From Syntrophobacteria bacterium (GTDB lineage Bacteria > Desulfobacterota > DSWW01), in the NCBI GenBank assembly GCA_030145435.1, contig JAQYVQ010000188.1, positions 1 through 33,498 of the forward strand: a stretch of 33,498 bases of DNA, written 5' to 3'. The translations under genes were made by a program, and so were the position numbers. The first letter of the stretch is position 1; each line of letters begins with the position of its first letter. Positions 5,336 to 27,935 of this stretch are shown piece by piece. The notes under the pieces were generated by a model. The model saw nothing but the letters and a program-made list of their open reading frames with translations. It searched no databases and was not told the origin of the DNA.

Positions 5336-5983
5336 TTACGGCGGCAGATGCCGCCCGAATCCATCCACCAGATACCCCGCGGCCTCTTTCTCACAGTTCC
5401 CGAAGAAGTGATCCGCCCCTTCCAGGATCTTCCAGTTCACTTCGTTCGGCAATTCCGAGCAGAGGGACTCTTTCCCCTCCGTCGGGCAGAACGCGTCCTG
5501 GCTTCCTGAAACGACGAACAGCGGCGCGCTGAGATCCTTGAGAAACGAGAAGGGGTACATGGCCACGGGGGGCGCGACGGCCCCCACGCAACGAACCCGG
5601 GCATCCCGGGTTGCGGCGCGAAGCCCCACCCATGCACCGAAAGAGTACCCGAGGACTCCCAGGCCGAAACCTTTCGTTTCGGGCAACGCCTCGAGCCAGT
5701 CGAGCACCCCCAGCACGTCCAGTATTTCCCCCTCCCCATCCTCGTGTCGCCCCCCGCTGGAGCCTACCCCACGGAAGTTGAAGGCCACCGCCACATAGCC
5801 GCGTTCCACAAAGGCATCGCAGAGGGCCCAAACCACATTGTTGTCCATCGACCCTCCGTATTGGGGGTGGGGGTGACAGATTACCACGCCCGGCCCGGTC
5901 GATGTCTGCTCGTCACAGCCCAGCTTCGCCTCAAGGGAAATCTCCCCCACCGGGATTTTCACATCTCTAACCTGAACCGTCAT
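5336..5983 (-). CDS. Alpha/beta hydrolase (COG2945-like)
   Basis: ORF 5336..6121 trimmed to the ATG at 5981-5983, which has GGAGAGG upstream. Motifs HPHPQYGGSMDNNVV, FNFRGVGSSGG, the nucleophile elbow GYSFGA and a C-terminal GADHFF are present. Confidence 0.8.
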   Translation of the reverse strand: MTVQVRDVKIPVGEISLEAKLGCDEQTSTGPGVVICHPHPQYGGSMDNNVVWALCDAFVERGYVAVAFNFRGVGSSGGRHEDGEGEILDVLGVLDWLEALPETKGFGLGVLGYSFGAWVGLRAATRDARVRCVGAVAPPVAMYPFSFLKDLSAPLFVVSGSQDAFCPTEGKESLCSELPNEVNWKILEGADHFFGNCEKEAAGYLVDGFGRHLPP

Positions 5984-6227
5984 ACCTCTCCACCTCTCCA
6001 ACGCTCTGAGTTCGTGTTCATACTCTCCTACCACAGTCCCTAATTTCCGGGCAACCGATGGAGAGTCCTTGCGAAAGGGGGCAAGTCTGTTGACCCCTTT
6101 CGCAGGCTGAAGCGGGCTCACGATCTTAAGCCAATGGCGGAGGAGCCCGCCACACGCACGGCCGCGGGTTTGACAGAATTCGATTCGCAGCAGATGATCG
6201 TCTTAGGGATGCTGGTTGTTGAAGGTT

Positions 6228-6373
6228 GGCTATTAGCTATTAGCTTTTAGCTGTTAGCACCCAACCACGCCCCCACCAGAACAATCAATCATCCTCGTCC
6301 TCGAACCCGGGCACGGGCATGCACGCGGGGTGGTGGCTGGACGCTAATAGCTAATGGCTAACGGCTAACAGCC
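6228..6373 (+). repeat. Mosaic palindromic intergenic element, copy E1 (heptamer arms plus C-box, TCGTCC/GGGCAC modules and G-box)
   Basis: Sequence reads GGC-TATTAGC-TATTAGC-TTTTAGC-TGTTAGC / ACCCAACCACGCCCCCACC / ...TCCTCGTCCTCGAACCCGGGCACGGGCA... / GGGGTGGTGGCTGG / GCTAATA-GCTAATG-GCTAACG-GCTAACA-GCC. It lies between the divergent hydrolase and moxR-like genes. Confidence 0.9.
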
Positions 6374-6426
6374 AATAGGCGTCTTGTTCAAAGCCCAGTA
6401 CAGCGTCAAGAAAAGGAATCCGCCGA

Positions 6427-7257
6427 ATGCCCGTACAAAGATCCTTTACCGTCGATGACGTCATTCTCCTGCTGCCCCCTCCAACCGAAATGGATGTCGA
6501 GTGGATCGGCCAGGAGGAGGTCATCCACCAGCTCCTGGCGGCCTGGATGGTTCTCGACGAGAAGGATCTTCCCCTGAACCCTCGGTTGGTGGGAAACCCG
6601 GGGATGGGGAAGACGACCTGCGCGTACGCTGCGGGCCTGCGAATCGAGAAGCCGATCTATCTATTTCAGGCCACCGTGGATACCCGGCCCGAGGATTTGA
6701 TCGTCATGCCCGTCCTCGGCCCAAAACAGGAGGTCCAGTACATGGCCTCCACGATCGTGGCGGCCACGGTCAACGGCGGCGTCTGCATTCTGGACGAGGG
6801 AAACCGGATGAACGAGAAGTCGTGGGCGTCCCTGGCCCCGCTGCTGGATCACCGCCGGTATCTGGAAAGCATGGTAACGGGCATCAAGATCCCTGCGCAC
6901 CCGGATTTCCGATTTGTCACGACCATGAACGAGGATGCCTCGACGTACGATCTGCCGGAATACATCCACTCCCGTCTGCAACCCCAGATCCACATAGACT
7001 TCCCGGAAGAGGACGAAGAGCGAGCCATCCTGAAGGCGAACATCCCGTTCGCAGAAGAAGAGATCCTGACCTATGTTCTCGCCTTCCTCGCCCGGGCCCA
7101 TCAAGCGGACGAGCGATACACCGTTCGTGACGGAATCAACATCGTCCGGTATGCAATGAAACTGCTTCATCGGGAAGAGGGAACCCCCAGCCAGATGTTC
7201 GAGAAGGCCCTTCGCCTGATCCTTGGCGAGGAGGCAATGCCCTATGTCGGTGTCTGA
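6427..7257 (+). CDS. AAA+ ATPase, MoxR class (CbbQ/NorQ-sized, AAA_5-like)
   Basis: 276 aa. It has Walker A GNPGMGKT, Walker B VCILDEGNR, the sensor region FRFVTTMNEDAS..YDLPEYIHSRL and the lid FPEEDEERAIL. An AAGGA SD lies upstream of the ATG. Confidence 0.85.
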   Translation: MPVQRSFTVDDVILLLPPPTEMDVEWIGQEEVIHQLLAAWMVLDEKDLPLNPRLVGNPGMGKTTCAYAAGLRIEKPIYLFQATVDTRPEDLIVMPVLGPKQEVQYMASTIVAATVNGGVCILDEGNRMNEKSWASLAPLLDHRRYLESMVTGIKIPAHPDFRFVTTMNEDASTYDLPEYIHSRLQPQIHIDFPEEDEERAILKANIPFAEEEILTYVLAFLARAHQADERYTVRDGINIVRYAMKLLHREEGTPSQMFEKALRLILGEEAMPYVGV

Positions 7258-9238
7258 CCCCTGGACGATTCCGTGGGGCAATCTCTCCTGCCTGCCCGTC
7301 TGCCACTACCGACTCGAGTTCGCCGAGTTGGTGCGCGCTCAATTCGCAGAGGACCCTCCCGACTGCCTTGCCCTCGAGTTGCCTTCCCATCTGGCAGACG
7401 CGTATAAGCGCGCGATCTCGCGCCTTCCGGAGGTATCGATTCTTCTGTTCGAAGACGCTTCCGGACAGACCGTCTACTTGCCCGTAGAACCCGTGGATCC
7501 CTTCGCAGAAGCTGCCCGATCCGCCCTGGAACTGGGGATCCCGGTGCATCTCGTGGACATCAACCTGGAAGAAGCCTACCCTCCCTTTCGCGACCCTGTT
7601 CCCGACCCGTATGCCCTCCACGAGATCGGTCCGAAGCTCTACTACGAGGCATTTCGAACCATCTGGCAGGAGAAGCTCAAGGACCACCCCCTGGACATCC
7701 GCAGAGAGCAGGGCATGGCCGCCCACCTGCAGGGCCTCCTCGGCAAGCATTCCAAGGTCCTCTTCGTCTGTGGAATGATCCATGCCGAAGGCGTGATCAA
7801 ACGACTCGACCAGCCCCAGGCGACGCCACTGCATCGGGTGCACTCACCGCCCTTTCAGGTCTTTCACCTGCACCCCTCCTGTCTCGACGAGGTGATGGCA
7901 ACCTTCCCCCTACTCAGCGCCCTTTACGAAACCCGAAGGAAGGGGCTTCCTCCCGAACCTGAAAGGGACCGTTTCACGCTGCGAAGGAGTTTCCGTATCG
8001 AATCCCGCCCATTCGCATTGTACGGGAAGGAGGACGCCGTTTACGACGAAAGGGCCGCTCTCGAAGGCTCCCTCGCATGGATTGCCCGCCGCGCAGGCCT
8101 TGGAGAGGAGAGTGACGACCCACCAGGGCCCATCGACCGGAACCGGGCACTCTATTTTCTCCTCGAAGAGGCGGGCAGACATTACAGAGACGAAACGGGA
8201 GAGCAGGTAAAGGGCTGGCAGAAGCGGGTTTTCTGGAAATTCGTGAGAAACTATGCGCTCGTGCACGGTCTCCTGCTGCCCGAATTCTACCACCTCCTCG
8301 TGGGTGCACGGTCCAGTGTGGATGACAACATGTGCTACAGTCTCTGGCGACTGGGTGGGTTCTACCCCTGGCAGGCGGAGTCCTCCAATGTGCCCACCTT
8401 GACGGTAAAGGGGGAGGAGGTCTGGCTCGGGACCCGCCGGATCCACGTCCGGAGGTGGCTGCCCAGAAAGAAACAGCGCCTGCAGGGCGTGCTGCGCAAA
8501 CATCGTAAGCGGGAGAGATATCCGGGGGAGTGGCTCGAGAGCTTTGACGGGAGCGCCCTTTGCTCCTACCCGCCCGAAGACCTCGTCGTGGAGGATTACG
8601 GTCGCTTCCTGCGAGAACAATGGCGACACATACTGAAGGACGAGCACAACCCGTCCGAGCCGTTTGTCACGTCTTTTCTCGACGGCATCGACATTCGAGA
8701 GACGATCAGGAAATGGCACGAAAAGCGCATCTATGTCAAGAATCGGGAGGCGTCAAGAGGGGGTTCGGGTGCGGTGGTCGTCATCTTCGATGAAGACGAA
8801 AAGGATGATCAATACCCCTACCGGATGACCTGGCTGGGAGAGCATGAACAGGAATCCGACATGGCATTCTATGCAACCTCTCCCGAGGAGAACATCGTGG
8901 GCCCGGGTATGTGTCGATGCGAGTATGGGGGATTCCTGATGACCTACCCGCCGCGCAGGCTCTACGATGTGTGGCAGGATCCTGACTACCGCTTCCTGCA
9001 ATCCAAGGCCGAGGTTCTCCTCGCGGCGGCCCTGGACTATTCTCTGGAGAGGCAGGTCGTCTACGTGGCTTCCCGTCCACCACGTTCCATCATGCGAACC
9101 CTTGCCGAGAGGCTTCGACGGCAAATCGTCTATATCCCGAAGGGCGCGCTCTCCCCATCCCGACTGAAGAGGACCCGCGTCTTCCACATCCTGAGCGGGC
9201 ATGACAAACGGGACGGGGCCAAAGACTTCATCGTCTGA
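7244..9238 (+). CDS. Large (664 aa) uncharacterised protein with an N-terminal TraB/PrgY/GumN (Tiki-superfamily)-like domain, partner of the MoxR-like ATPase
   Basis: The ATG at 7244 overlaps the ATPase stop by 14 nt. PVCHYRLEFAELVRAQFAEDPPDCLALELP resembles the TraB GTAHVS...PD.VaVEL pattern. AARSALELGIPVHLVDIN and REQGMAAHLQGLL....KVLFVCGMIHAEGV resemble ..A...g..v.liD and eRD..Ma..L....vvaVvGaGH..G. I recognise nothing in the C-terminal 450 aa, and no DxSxS MIDAS motif is visible. Confidence 0.7.
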   Translation: MSVSDPWTIPWGNLSCLPVCHYRLEFAELVRAQFAEDPPDCLALELPSHLADAYKRAISRLPEVSILLFEDASGQTVYLPVEPVDPFAEAARSALELGIPVHLVDINLEEAYPPFRDPVPDPYALHEIGPKLYYEAFRTIWQEKLKDHPLDIRREQGMAAHLQGLLGKHSKVLFVCGMIHAEGVIKRLDQPQATPLHRVHSPPFQVFHLHPSCLDEVMATFPLLSALYETRRKGLPPEPERDRFTLRRSFRIESRPFALYGKEDAVYDERAALEGSLAWIARRAGLGEESDDPPGPIDRNRALYFLLEEAGRHYRDETGEQVKGWQKRVFWKFVRNYALVHGLLLPEFYHLLVGARSSVDDNMCYSLWRLGGFYPWQAESSNVPTLTVKGEEVWLGTRRIHVRRWLPRKKQRLQGVLRKHRKRERYPGEWLESFDGSALCSYPPEDLVVEDYGRFLREQWRHILKDEHNPSEPFVTSFLDGIDIRETIRKWHEKRIYVKNREASRGGSGAVVVIFDEDEKDDQYPYRMTWLGEHEQESDMAFYATSPEENIVGPGMCRCEYGGFLMTYPPRRLYDVWQDPDYRFLQSKAEVLLAAALDYSLERQVVYVASRPPRSIMRTLAERLRRQIVYIPKGALSPSRLKRTRVFHILSGHDKRDGAKDFIV

Positions 9239-9250
9239 GGGGTCGACTTC

Positions 9251-11272
9251 CTACTTCTGTTCCTGTTCCTTCTCGTACTCGGCTACGATCGCCTTGTGTA
9301 CAAGCGGCGGCACGATGTCGTAGTGATCGAATTCCATCGTGTAGGAACCCTCTCCCCCGGTCATGGACTTCAGCCCGGCCTGGTAGTTCTGAACCTCTCC
9401 CAACGGGATCAGCGCCTGGACCACGGCCAGGTTGCCCTCGCTGCCGCTCGTGAGGATCCGCCCGCGCTTTCCGTTGAGATCCCCCATCACATCGCCCATG
9501 TTTGCCTGCGGGACGACAACTTCCAGTTTCACGATCGGCTCGAGGAGGACGGGATTGCATAGGAGCACCGCCTTCTTGAAGGCCTCCCGGCCTGCGATCT
9601 GGAAGGCGATGTCCTTCGAGTCCACCGGGTGTGTCTTGCCGTCCACGAGCGTGACCCGCACATCCACGACGGGATTGCCCGCGAGCACCCCCTCCGCCAT
9701 CTTGCTCTGAACGCCCTTGTCCACCGACGGGCGGAAGGTCTGGTCGATCACACCGCCGAAGATCTTGTCCGCGAACTCGTATCCGGCCCCTCGTTCCCGG
9801 GGCTCCAAATCGATGAAGACCCTCGCAAACTGCCCCGCGCCACCCGTCTGTTTCTTGTGCGTGTACTCCACGTACTTGGCGCTCTTTGTGATCGTCTCCA
9901 TGTAGGGGATCTTGGGGGGGGTTGTTTCAACCTCGACCTTTCGTCTCCTCTTGATCTTCTTCAACATCAACAAGAGGTGAACATCCGACATTCCGCTCAG
10001 AACGAGGTCGCCGGTCTGCGCGTCCGCCCGTACGGCAACCGTTCGGTCGTCCGCAACGAGTTCTTTCAGGGCCGTACTGATCTTCGTTTCGTCCCCTCGG
10101 CTCTTCGGCCGGACCGCCAGGGAACACATGGGCGTCGGAAACTTGATTTCCGGGAGCGTGATCTTCGTCTTGTCATCGGTCAGGGTATCCCCGGCCAGGA
10201 TGTCCTCCACCTTGGCCACGGCCACGATGTCTCCGCACACCCCCTGTTCGACCGGATTCTGTTCCTTCCCACAAATCTTCAACAACCCCCCTATTCGTTC
10301 ACTCTTTCCCGAGCGACGGTTCACGAAGGAGGTGTTGGAATCAAGGCTACCGGAAAGGACCCTCAGGTACGATATTCGGGTCACGAACTCGTCGGCAATG
10401 GTCCTGTATACGAAGCCCACGAACCCATTGTCCGGGTCCAGCACGACCTCTTCCTCCCCTGCCATCCCCTTCCGCTCGACCTCGTTCGGGTTCGGCGCAA
10501 AGGTCGCTAGAAAATCAAGCGTCTCCTCCAGCCCCACCTGTGGCTCCCCGGCGGCAACCAGCACAGGGAAAAGCACCCTCTTCAACATGGCCTTGGTGAA
10601 GGTGGACCGGAAGACCTCGTCGGAGATTTCCTCTCCTTCGAGGTACTTCTCCATCAACGCGTCGTCCGCTTCCACGACCGCCTCGCTCAGGCTCTCATTC
10701 AAGGAAGACACTTCCTCCGGCGCTCCGTCCGGAGGCTCCACCACGGAGAATACCTTGCTAAAAGAGGAGGCCGATCCATCCGGCCACAGGGCGGGGATGC
10801 AACGATCCCCGAAGAGTTCCTGGATCTCGGCAAGGGTCTTCGCGTAGTTTGTGTTCTCGGCGTCAAGCCTCGTAATCGCAAAGCAGCAGGGCAAACCGAG
10901 CTTCTCCGCTTCTTGCCAGATCTTGCGTGTGTTCACCTTGACTCCGCTCGTGGCATCCACGCAGATCAGGGCACACTCTACGGCACGAAGGGCAGTAAGC
11001 ATGTCGCCCACGCAGTCCGACGATCCGGGGACATCGAGGACATTGAAGGCCACGTCTTTGTAGGAGAAGGAGAGTGTTGAACAGGAGAAGGACTTCCCCC
11101 CTTCCCTCTCATCCTGATCAAAATCGCTCGCCGTATTGCCTTCCTTGATGGTTCCCATGCGTGTCAACACGCCCACCTTGTGCAGAAACGCTTCGACGAG
11201 TATCGTCTTTCCAGCACCTTCGTGGCCGACAAGGGCAATGTTCCGGATTTTGGTGGTTTCGATACGGGCCAT
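9251..11272 (-). CDS. Elongation factor G-like translational GTPase paralogue with degenerate G motifs
   Basis: 673 aa with the full five-domain EF-G layout, including the domain II barrel, domain IV and the C-terminal GEGSYTMEFDHY. The P-loop GHEGAGKT is intact. However, switch II reads DVPGSSD (not DxPGH), G4 reads TRLD (not NKxD) and switch I reads EREGGKSF (not ERGITI). Confidence 0.9.
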   Translation of the reverse strand: MARIETTKIRNIALVGHEGAGKTILVEAFLHKVGVLTRMGTIKEGNTASDFDQDEREGGKSFSCSTLSFSYKDVAFNVLDVPGSSDCVGDMLTALRAVECALICVDATSGVKVNTRKIWQEAEKLGLPCCFAITRLDAENTNYAKTLAEIQELFGDRCIPALWPDGSASSFSKVFSVVEPPDGAPEEVSSLNESLSEAVVEADDALMEKYLEGEEISDEVFRSTFTKAMLKRVLFPVLVAAGEPQVGLEETLDFLATFAPNPNEVERKGMAGEEEVVLDPDNGFVGFVYRTIADEFVTRISYLRVLSGSLDSNTSFVNRRSGKSERIGGLLKICGKEQNPVEQGVCGDIVAVAKVEDILAGDTLTDDKTKITLPEIKFPTPMCSLAVRPKSRGDETKISTALKELVADDRTVAVRADAQTGDLVLSGMSDVHLLLMLKKIKRRRKVEVETTPPKIPYMETITKSAKYVEYTHKKQTGGAGQFARVFIDLEPRERGAGYEFADKIFGGVIDQTFRPSVDKGVQSKMAEGVLAGNPVVDVRVTLVDGKTHPVDSKDIAFQIAGREAFKKAVLLCNPVLLEPIVKLEVVVPQANMGDVMGDLNGKRGRILTSGSEGNLAVVQALIPLGEVQNYQAGLKSMTGGEGSYTMEFDHYDIVPPLVHKAIVAEYEKEQEQK

Positions 11273-11440: not shown

Positions 11441-11570
11441 GGCTGTAAGCTGTTAGCTATTAGCCCACCCCGCCCCCATTTTGGGCGCGTCCTGTTGGGG
11501 CGTGTGGTTGGGAGCTAACAGCTAAAAGCTAACGGCTAACAGCCAGGTTCGACAGGACGAGGACGAGCGG
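11441..11570 (-). repeat. Mosaic palindromic intergenic element, copy E2 (inverted relative to E1), with a flanking TCGTCC module
   Basis: The hairpin at 11441-11544 reads GGC-TGTAAGC-TGTTAGC-TATTAGC / CCACCCCGCCCCCA...GGGGCGTGTGGTTGGGA / GCTAACA-GCTAAAA-GCTAACG-GCTAACA-GCC. It is followed by GACAGGACGAGGACGAGCGG at 11551-11570. It lies between the pcm stop (11577) and the EF-G-like promoter. Confidence 0.9.
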
Positions 11571-12339: not shown

Positions 12340-12396
12340 TCCCACCGGGGGGGGAATGGCTGGGAGCTAATACCTAATAGCTAATACCTAACAGCC
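12340..12396 (-). repeat. Half-copy of the heptamer-arm element (E3) with a G8 tract
   Basis: The plus strand reads CCCACC-GGGGGGGG-AATGGCTGGGAGC-TAATACC-TAATAGC-TAATACC-TAACAGCC. The minus strand reads GGC-TGTTAGG-TATTAGC-TATTAGG-TATTAGC-TCCCAGCC. It has one arm only. It lies between the eno stop (12403) and the pcm start. Confidence 0.8.
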
Positions 12397-17107: not shown

Positions 17108-17150
17108 GCGGCAGCCGACAAACGACCCTCCGGTGCTGTACCTTATGCTT

Positions 17151-17239
17151 GGCTGTTAGCTGTTAGCTCCCAACCCCTCCCCCAATCGAGACGCACCTAT
17201 AGAAGGGCGGGGTGGGCTAAAAGCTAAGAGCTAACAGCC
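17151..17239 (+). repeat. Mosaic palindromic intergenic element, copy E4
   Basis: Sequence reads GGC-TGTTAGC-TGTTAGC / TCCCAACCCCTCCCCC...GGGCGGGGTGG / GCTAAAA-GCTAAGA-GCTAACA-GCC. It lies between the LolA-like stop (17107) and the queE start (17289). Confidence 0.9.
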
Positions 17240-19939: not shown

Positions 19940-20147
19940 GACAAAAAGATTAGGGTTCGGGGATCAGGGGTCAGACCCACTCCCCCCCCCCCTTTTAACC
20001 GCGCACGGCACTGTACCCACTAACCACTTCCCACCATACAATCGACTGTTCCCTATTTTTTTCCCCAAGCAGCTGTCCCAATTATCCCTACGGAAGACCT
20101 CCTCAAAACGGAGCGGGAAGAGGGTGTCAGGAACCTTTTCTTCTCCT

Positions 20148-20245
20148 GGCCATTAGCGATTAGCTCCCCGCCCCCAACGGGATGCACACAAAATGGGGGT
20201 GGCGTGGGCTGATAGCTGATAGCCAAAAGCCGGGCACGGGCACGG
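20148..20245 (+). repeat. Mosaic palindromic intergenic element, copy E5, with a flanking GGGCAC module
   Basis: Sequence reads GGC-CATTAGC-GATTAGC / TCCCCGCCCCCAAC...AAAATGGGGGTGGCGTGG / GCTGATA-GCTGATA-GCC over 20148-20224, then AAAAGCC-GGGCAC-GGGCAC-GG to 20245. It lies between the convergent mglA-like (stop 19939) and CPBP (stop 20272) genes. Confidence 0.9.
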
Positions 20246-27805: not shown

Positions 27806-27935
27806 GGCTATTCGGCTATTAGCCATTAGCTGTTAGCTCCCAACCACACCCCACCAGGACTGTCGGTCGTCCTCCTCCTCGTCCTCGTCGAACGGAAGGG
27901 GTGGGCTAATTGCTAAAAGCTAATGGCCAACAGCC
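27806..27935 (+). repeat. Mosaic palindromic intergenic element, copy E6 (with a TCCTCG-type module in the loop)
   Basis: Sequence reads GGC-TATTC-GGC-TATTAGC-CATTAGC-TGTTAGC / TCCCAACCACACCCCACCAGGAC / ...TCGTCCTCCTCCTCGTCCTCGTCGAA... / GGAAGGGGTGG / GCTAATT-GCTAAAA-GCTAATG-GCCAACA-GCC. It lies between the divergent SPOR and M48 genes. Confidence 0.9.

Follow-up and report, generated by a model that had tools for sequence, protein, structure and literature searches.

The 33,498-nucleotide contig JAQYVQ010000188.1 of a Syntrophobacteria bacterium (assembly GCA_030145435.1; the whole stretch is called the window below) carries a two-gene operon in which a MoxR-class AAA+ ATPase of 276 aa is encoded directly upstream of a 664-aa partner that is labelled 'hypothetical' in every source. 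Few AAA+ proteins are as widespread as the MoxR ATPases or as poorly understood, and the working paradigm is that of an ATPase cooperating with a protein that carries a VWA (von Willebrand factor type A) domain (PMC13036017). The module found here keeps the MoxR motor and swaps the VWA adaptor for a protein with an apparently active Tiki/TraB site and ~460 further residues of no recognisable fold. It is best described as a widespread, unannotated two-gene system in which a Tiki/TraB-fold protein, extended by two more domains of unknown fold, serves as the adaptor. While the identity of these parts is highly probable, the general model, in which a MoxR remodeller has a Tiki-fold hydrolase as its adaptor, is given a probability of roughly 0.5, and the mechanism that might couple the ATPase to the Tiki-type site is tentative.

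An earlier note, made from the letters of the window and their translations, had proposed a translationally coupled MoxR/CbbQ-type ATPase with a TraB/Tiki-like partner in place of a VWA protein, and most of what it claimed has stood. The motifs that it quoted are present in the translations (GNPGMGKT, ILDEGNR, PVCHY, PPDCLALELP, LELGIPVHLVDIN, REQGMAAHLQ, VLFVCGMIHAEG and, at about nt 8771-8809, AVVVIFDEDEKDD), and the residues that it had singled out in the partner, H21, E45, R154-E155, G177 and H180, are invariant in 126 sequences. Its reading of VVVIFDEDE as a possible vestigial VWA beta1 strand found no support, as detailed below.

The ATPase and the domains of its partner

The ATPase gene (6427..7257, + strand) begins with ATG in the open reading frame (ORF) listing. 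Its assignment to the MoxR/CbbQ-type class agrees with a Pfam AAA_5 match (E=9.8e-14; AAA_3 is weaker) that scores 52 bits where 22 are required, and with its nearest solved relatives, the best PDB sequence matches being CbbQ (5c3c, 1.2e-9; 6l1q), the AAA modules of midasin, and NorQ (9qh4, 3e-7). Walker A (GNPGMGKT, aa 56-63, 6592..6615, +) and Walker B (VCILDE, aa 119-124, 6781..6798, +) can be read directly from the sequence. Among 68 aligned orthologues, G.PG.GKT, LDEGNR, SLAPLLDxRR, T.N.D, LPEYIHSRLQP and RDGIN are at least 98% conserved. By analogy with CbbQ, T.N.D may be the sensor 1 region, LPEYIHSRLQP the candidate arginine finger and RDGIN the candidate sensor 2. Homologues in 70 related loci are 57-89% identical to the window protein. 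In size and architecture it belongs with the CbbQ/NorQ/GvpN class, an AAA+ core plus lid and nothing more, and it is probably an active, minimal MoxR-class enzyme. NCBIfam returned just a weak match of the lid to the GvpN model TIGR02640 (E=2e-6, 27.5 bits against a cutoff of 266.8 bits); the ATPase reached no equivalog, and no CbbQ or NorQ model matched. Judged by its sequence, it is close to the CbbQ/GvpN/NorQ (CGN) group and an orthologue of none of the three.

For the partner (7244..9238, + strand), sequence comparison, fold search and active-site pattern together support a TraB/Tiki-superfamily domain of the DUF5682 type at aa ~14-190 (7283..7813, +), in agreement with the TraB/Tiki-like N-terminus of ~190 aa proposed in the earlier note. 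The Pfam signal did not surface until many members of the family were scanned domain by domain instead of as whole proteins. With the whole partner, Pfam gave a single weak DUF5682 match (E=0.07) and NCBIfam nothing. When the first 220 residues of 82 family members were each scanned singly, 66 of the 82 N-termini matched DUF5682 (best E=2.6e-10) and 33 matched TraB_PrgY_gumN below threshold (best E=4.5e-4), while DUF5694 was matched by three and Cofac_haem_bdg, described as 'Tiki superfamily, ChaN', by two. The unrelated families DUF728 and Gp7_helical matched three N-termini each, and no other family matched more than three. The 26.8-bit cutoff of TraB_PrgY_gumN (PF01963) was reached by no member, the listed scores lying at 13.1-16.9 bits, and the window protein had no match to this family. 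The match to the DUF5682 profile (PF18934; ~727 positions) is confined to positions ~1-210; with the cutoff at 26 bits, the window protein attains 16, and some relatives attain 27-32 on the N-domain alone. The caveat that the partner might belong to an existing DUF family was therefore apt, since the N-domain falls in DUF5682, the family of Escherichia coli YehM. Profile alignment with hhalign against the YehM family places window aa 14-186 on YehM 7-222 (E=1.7e-5, probability 78%) and superposes PVxH on GxRH, ELP on IEGP, RRE on ARE, and CGMxH on CGGxH (window partner first). With E. coli YbaP, of the TraB family, used as a single sequence, hhalign showed no signal to either of the two families and the PDB search no match, and YbaP was set aside as too divergent.

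Two AlphaFold2 models of the partner were available for fold searches. Model 1, built on a 31-sequence alignment, left the C-terminal half with a predicted local distance difference test (pLDDT) score below 50. Model 2, built on a 126-sequence alignment that includes the chlamydial branch, has a mean pLDDT of 83, with the N-domain mostly above 90. A Foldseek search of BFVD with model 2 found a Marseillevirus 'TraB family protein' (E=1.2e-4, probability 1.00) that was covered over its whole 220 residues. The best PDB match was a Tetrahymena complex IV subunit of 383-384 aa (E ~0.1), which took the top three places with model 1 and ranks 1, 2 and 12 with model 2. Such a chain is consistent with COXTT5, a 385-aa Tetrahymena 'TraB family protein' (PMC10060162 supplement).

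The conserved residues point in the same direction. Invariant in the 126 sequences are H21, E25, E45, R60, E89, R92, D105, R154, E155, G177 and H180, and the active site of the TIKI family consists of two histidines, two glutamates and a conserved basic residue (PMC6254334). H21, E25, E45, E89, R154-E155 and G177xxH180 fit such a 2His/2Glu/Arg site.

The remainder of the partner had been described in the earlier note as unrecognisable, and it remains so: neither sequence nor fold comparison linked these ~460 residues to any entry of Pfam, NCBIfam or the PDB. No meaningful match came from searching PDB sequences with profiles of the full-length protein and of its C-terminal part, and Foldseek against the PDB with model 2 gave nothing significant for either the middle or the C-terminal domain. 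The middle region (aa ~205-400, 7856..8443, +) is predicted by model 2 to be mostly helical, with pLDDT mostly 83-97. It carries the conserved motifs DRQR, ETGE..WQKR.F.RF.RNYA and CVDDNF, and showed no recurrent Pfam match among the 82 members and no PDB sequence match. The C-terminal alpha/beta domain (aa ~425-664, 8516..9235, +), delimited by model 2 and invariant columns, is the best-conserved part of the protein, with dozens of invariant polar residues and the motifs CSYPPED, DGIDxRET, VVVIFDED, TWLGEHxQESDMAFYAT, VGPGxxRCEYGGF, PPRS and RVFHIL.G.DKR. In the model it runs from a long helix through a mostly beta segment with a long hairpin (aa 551-567) to a final beta-alpha-beta-alpha-beta-alpha unit. 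It lies at the extreme C-terminus of every full-length representative, no other architecture being seen among the best 150, and as a candidate new fold or family it is worth a profile of its own. No hydrophobic segment is present in the partner (maximum Kyte-Doolittle(19) score 1.19), which is predicted to be cytoplasmic.

Two further relationships were considered for these regions. An internal duplication was rejected, as comparison of the N-terminal, middle and C-terminal regions revealed no repeat of the N-domain. In 22 of the 82 members, the last ~55 residues (window 9070-9235) gave sub-threshold matches to Mor (PF08765; best 0.0035), located in one member with coordinates to the segment IVYIP.G.LSP..LK.IRVFHIL.G.DKR.IAKDYI, which we take to be only part of the Mor helix-turn-helix. 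These matches never reached the cutoff and were dismissed as not meaningful and probably a chance pattern match.

Conservation of the pair and its surroundings

Both genes of the pair are real. As the earlier note had stated, the ORF listing and the junction sequence confirm an overlap of 14 nt between a 276-aa and a 664-aa frame. The junction (7228..7257, +) comprises a Shine-Dalgarno sequence GAGGAGG at 7228-7234, placed 9 nt upstream of the partner ATG at 7244-7246, and the ATPase stop codon TGA at 7255-7257, a layout that would be consistent with translational coupling. In the ORF listing the partner frame extends over 7223..9238 (+), or 671 aa, when counted from a TTG; the in-frame ATG at 7244 is taken as the start because the resulting 664-aa N-terminus agrees with all homologues. 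An identical 14-nt overlap occurs in four other loci (L001, L005, L064 and L070), and the remaining loci mostly have overlaps or gaps of a few nucleotides.

The module is very common. Relatives are encoded in at least 545 genomes in a scan of one genome per GTDB species. Thousands of proteins belong to the family: one search gave more than 1000 partner homologues at E<=1e-3, another, with a chlamydial query, more than 4600 among 8000 scored candidates, and the C-terminal domain alone finds 568 of the 1.84 billion representatives of clusters at 50% identity. Eighty loci from the GTDB species scan and five others were examined by tblastn and ORF clustering, and gene positions were counted in 83 assessable loci, including two further annotated ones. 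The ATPase gene lies directly upstream of the partner on the same strand in 69 of the 83 (~83%), mostly overlapping it by 4-35 nt or separated from it by a few nucleotides; it lies 1-5 kb upstream in five, and it was not found anywhere in the locus in nine (eight distinct, since L002 and L003 represent one species). All-against-all ORF clustering of the 85 loci recovered just the pair and shadow ORFs and no third conserved gene, the flanking genes being housekeeping genes that vary from locus to locus.

The pair spans at least six phyla. It occurs in Thermodesulfobacteriota, Desulfobacterales, Desulfarculaceae, Geobacteraceae and Desulfuromonadaceae, in Acidobacteriota (Bryobacterales, Terriglobia and Blastocatellia), and in one genome each of Nitrospirota and Acidimicrobiia, and the family is also present in Parachlamydiaceae and Waddliaceae. 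A Fimbriimonadaceae genome contains the partner in a locus where the ATPase was not found. The gene-neighbourhood check suggested in the earlier note has thus revealed a pair conserved across phyla, without a third co-occurring gene. What was found is neither a canonical VWA domain without a Tiki fold nor a gene pair limited to one genome.

The chlamydial branch of the partner family is very large, making up the more than 4600 matches among 8000 candidates mentioned above. One of its members is found on the 231-kb plasmid pS13 of Neochlamydia sp. S13 (139011-140864), where the two genes are 5 nt apart and the partner is 36% identical. This copy is located between ttcA and surE, with a recombinase gene, an AbiEi antitoxin gene and a group II intron nearby, and the plasmid is the sole match among 72,556 PLSDB records.

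In Geobacter metallireducens the gene order is ferrochelatase, a small ORF, the AAA_5 gene, the partner and a HAMP/PAS protein, with URO-D nearby. Geobacter sulfurreducens (L002/L003) keeps the partner and the HAMP/PAS protein, with a lytic transglycosylase and a sigma-54 regulator upstream and no ATPase within 8 kb of the partner. Between the two species the downstream synteny is therefore kept and the upstream region differs. An ORF cluster of ~319 aa in six Geobacteraceae loci may correspond to the ferrochelatase/URO-D synteny gene of G. metallireducens.

Within the window, the operon is surrounded by lnt, an alpha/beta-hydrolase gene, an EF-G-like GTPase gene, pcm and eno, an arrangement that is syntenic with locus L001, an 84%-identical relative. 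The hydrolase gene (5336-6121, - strand) is divergent from the operon; its counterpart in L001 is Abhydrolase_1 or Peptidase_S15-like, and this synteny is kept in L001 and not in other lineages. The EF-G-like GTPase gene (9251-11272, - strand, 673 aa) is convergent and ends 13 nt from the partner stop codon. The syntenic gene in L001 encodes a complete set of EF-G domains. The window gene has the look of an additional, non-canonical EF-G paralogue and not of fusA in the str-operon setting that is usual for it. Upstream of the operon, a consensus scan gave a promoter-like site, TTGACA with a 17-nt spacer and GATGAT (6170..6198, +), which is weak taken alone (one site against 0.9 expected). A near-identical TTGACAGAAnTC...GCAGATnATCGT string stands just upstream of the ATPase gene in L001.

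Between this site and the ATPase start codon lies one copy of an intergenic palindromic element of tandem heptads, (GCTAAYA)n facing (TRTTAGC)n. Copies are found at 6226-6378, 11446-11539, 12366-12391, 17149-17234, 20146-20226 and 27812-27930 of the window, and a 19-nt pattern matches 18 times with an expectation of 0. In the copy that precedes the ATPase gene (6226-6378), arms of 30-35 nt are set ~85 nt apart and the folding energy is -76.7 kcal/mol (z=-4.5). This copy looks like an insertion into the leader of the operon that resembles repetitive extragenic palindromic sequences or miniature inverted-repeat transposable elements, because the same spacer in the 84%-identical L001 lacks it.

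Relation to known systems

The nearest precedent in databases is the YehL-YehM pair of E. coli, in which a MoxR ATPase of the AAA_5 type is likewise encoded directly upstream of a large protein with a DUF5682-type domain, although the VWA protein YehP is present there as well. YehM is a genuine member of DUF5682 (E=2.4e-98), and its first ~200 residues are homologous to the window N-domain, with matching positions of the H, E, RE and GxxH motifs. The other ~460-550 residues of the two proteins, in contrast, show no similarity, and the ATPases belong to different, distant branches (276 aa here and 362 aa in YehL; hhalign aligns just the AAA core, at E=0.0046). A kinship of the middle and C-terminal regions with the rest of YehM, or with YehP, YehQ or YehI, was also considered and rejected, as hhalign detected no similarity.

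The order yehI-yehL-yehM-yehP-yehQ corresponds to DUF4132/WGR, AAA_5, DUF5682, VWA_CoxE and SWIM-type proteins, and it is kept in five of five DUF5682 loci, namely E. coli K-12 (2198000-2222000), Serratia fonticola, Variovorax, Iodobacter and a metagenome-assembled genome of Rhodanobacteraceae. Unlike in this cluster, VWA_CoxE, SWIM-type and DUF4132/WGR proteins are absent from the flanks of the 85 window-family loci. The Yeh five-gene system appears to be without functional literature: no paper was found on DUF5682, YehM, YehP and YehQ were found in incidental gene lists only, and YehL is cited solely as the name of a MoxR subfamily (PMC3893208). Likewise, no paper was found that names MoxR together with TraB or Tiki. 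The module is not categorically new, since both of its recognisable parts belong to known superfamilies and the pairing of MoxR with DUF5682 already exists, unstudied, in databases.

With CbbQ/CbbO and NorQ/NorD the module shares the layout of a two-gene operon for an ATPase and a large partner, and the ATPase has the same size and architecture. It differs from them in that its partner carries a Tiki-fold domain instead of VWA/MIDAS (the latter being the metal ion-dependent adhesion site) and in that its ATPase is not an orthologue of CbbQ or NorQ (E ~1e-9). The partner resembles TraB/PrgY/GumN, Tiki and RRSP proteins in its fold matches and in an H...E...R-E...GxxH series comparable to the 2His/2Glu/Arg site. 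Unlike them, it falls below the Pfam TraB cutoff, has PxxH as its first motif, and has its domain fused to ~460 residues of unknown folds in a protein that is predicted to be cytoplasmic and is encoded with an AAA+ ATPase. GvpN is a CGN-type MoxR-class ATPase that works without a VWA protein. The weak TIGR02640 lid match of the window ATPase is a point of likeness to it, but the score is far below the cutoff, as given above, and no gas-vesicle genes are nearby.

Proposed working and alternative explanations

A functional link between the two proteins is drawn from the same-strand adjacency of the ATPase gene across at least six phyla, down to the 36% identity of the Neochlamydia partner, from stop and start codons that overlap or nearly abut as a rule, and from the lack of a third conserved gene. 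A parallel case is DUF5682/YehM, a second, independent family with the same N-domain that is also encoded directly downstream of an AAA_5 ATPase. If the two proteins cooperate, the ATPase would form a hexameric ring, as CbbQ and NorQ do, and the large partner would replace the VWA adaptor and dock on this ring. Docking and remodelling are modelled on NorQD, in which a finger of the NorD VWA domain enters the NorQ hexamer's pore and the ATPase remodels a NorD linker (PMC13036017). The candidate for the docking element would be the conserved C-terminal domain and its predicted hairpin (aa 551-567), in analogy to the finger of NorD. ATP-driven remodelling could then be coupled to hydrolysis by the Tiki-type domain, as a peptidase or an esterase, and this domain would either be switched on or be supplied with a protein or peptide to act on. 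The core-genome context points to housekeeping maturation or quality control as the role, rather than to defence.

Several points weigh against this model. Foldseek gives no aligned query region for the significant BFVD match, and this region is taken to be the N-domain since the Pfam TraB matches are confined there. In the PDB, the matches to the TraB-family subunit lack significance when taken alone (E ~0.1). The first motif of the putative active site is PxxH, with P replacing the G of GxxH. ChaN, a member of the Tiki superfamily, is a non-catalytic binder. The same is true of PMT C1/C2, which also belong to this superfamily (PMC6254334), and hydrolase activity of the partner is read from conserved residues. 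The physical link between the two proteins is deduced from their genes, and the docking role of the C-terminal domain and its hairpin is pure analogy. Finally, in several genomes, that of G. sulfurreducens among them, no ATPase gene lies within 5-8 kb of the partner gene, and the partner may therefore act by itself or together with an ATPase from another place in the genome.

Of the alternatives, a cofactor- or metal-insertion chaperone like NorQ/NorD, CoxD/CoxE or CobS/CobT survives best, though it is still unlikely. The Tiki-like domain would here be a non-hydrolytic, ChaN-like binder of metal or tetrapyrrole, and the ATPase would remodel a target enzyme for insertion. CbbQ and NorQ, the nearest solved relatives of the ATPase, are indeed maturation or activation factors (PMC13036017), two of the 82 N-termini match Cofac_haem_bdg, which Pfam describes as a haem-binding family of the Tiki superfamily, and in G. 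metallireducens the pair directly follows ferrochelatase, with URO-D nearby. This tetrapyrrole synteny, however, is confined to one clade (Geobacter) and is absent in the window, in Acidobacteriota and in Neochlamydia. No target enzyme co-occurs with the pair, and the complete 2His/2Glu/Arg set in 126 sequences suits catalysis better than mere ligand binding.

A bolder form of the hydrolase model can also be envisaged. Perhaps the pair is a two-component, ATP-dependent processing machine in which the MoxR hexamer unfolds or presents specific substrates to a Tiki-fold peptidase within its own adaptor. This rather unlikely proposal, if true, would amount to an AAA+ protease architecture of a new type, without kinship to Clp, Lon, FtsH or HslUV and widespread in anaerobic Thermodesulfobacteriota, Geobacter, Acidobacteriota and environmental Chlamydiae, and it would provide the first mechanistic model for E. 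coli YehLM.

It is improbable that the pair is a conflict or defence module related to MoxR-VWA systems and to YehI-L-M-P-Q, with the Tiki-type protease as an effector freed by the ATPase upon invasion. The DUF5682 relatives do occur in a five-gene cluster whose WGR/DUF4132 and SWIM proteins give it a sensor-effector look, and in Neochlamydia the pair is carried by a plasmid of 231 kb, with a recombinase, a toxin-antitoxin gene and a group II intron close by. Yet that plasmid is the one match among 72,556 plasmids, the window and L001 share a housekeeping synteny (lnt, hydrolase, pair, EF-G-like gene, enolase), and the pair is without a sensor-like third gene. PADLOC, moreover, found only a weak TRIP13 match for the ATPase (2.9e-5) and nothing for the partner.

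Alternatively, the module could be an ordinary MoxR-VWA pair in disguise, the C-terminal domain being a CoxE-type VWA domain whose MIDAS has decayed from DxSxS to DEDxx, with a working like that of NorQD or CbbQO. In its favour, an hhalign alignment of the C-terminal domain with the single YehP sequence is collinear and puts VVVIFDED on the MIDAS strand (VVVIFDED/LVLLVDQSGSM, VGPG..R/LGGGTNI and DGIDxRET/FDFKSTLR are paired). This alignment is not significant, with a probability of 2.5%, and against a five-sequence YehP profile it drops to 0.3% over 53 columns. None of the 82 family members matches a VWA family in Pfam at E<=1, a PDB sequence search detected no VWA/MIDAS domain in the partner, and no DxSxS motif is present, the candidate strand reading FDEDE. 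No VWA domain is found among the best 50 of 311 Foldseek matches in the PDB, and none of these is significant, although the C-terminal domain is modelled with pLDDT 80-92. In model 2, moreover, the VVVIFD strand is followed by four more strands, where a helix would follow beta1 of a VWA domain, and this strand order is incompatible with VWA. The earlier note had seen no MIDAS motif in the partner, and its observation is borne out by all of these searches: the partner is without a VWA/MIDAS domain, the residual chance of one being somewhat less than one in ten and reflecting the limits of the tools.

That the two genes are mere neighbours with unrelated functions, as the nine loci (eight distinct) with a partner and no ATPase nearby might suggest, is very improbable given same-strand adjacency with overlapping or abutting codons in 83% of the assessable loci, in several phyla where the other neighbours all change.

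Should the two proteins indeed cooperate in the manner of a MoxR remodeller with a Tiki-fold adaptor, the range of MoxR partners would be broader than the current paradigm allows, and the Tiki protease superfamily would be tied to ATP-driven remodelling. The module would also offer a tractable two-gene entry point in the genetically accessible G. metallireducens, one that may also lead toward the orphan proteins YehL and YehM.

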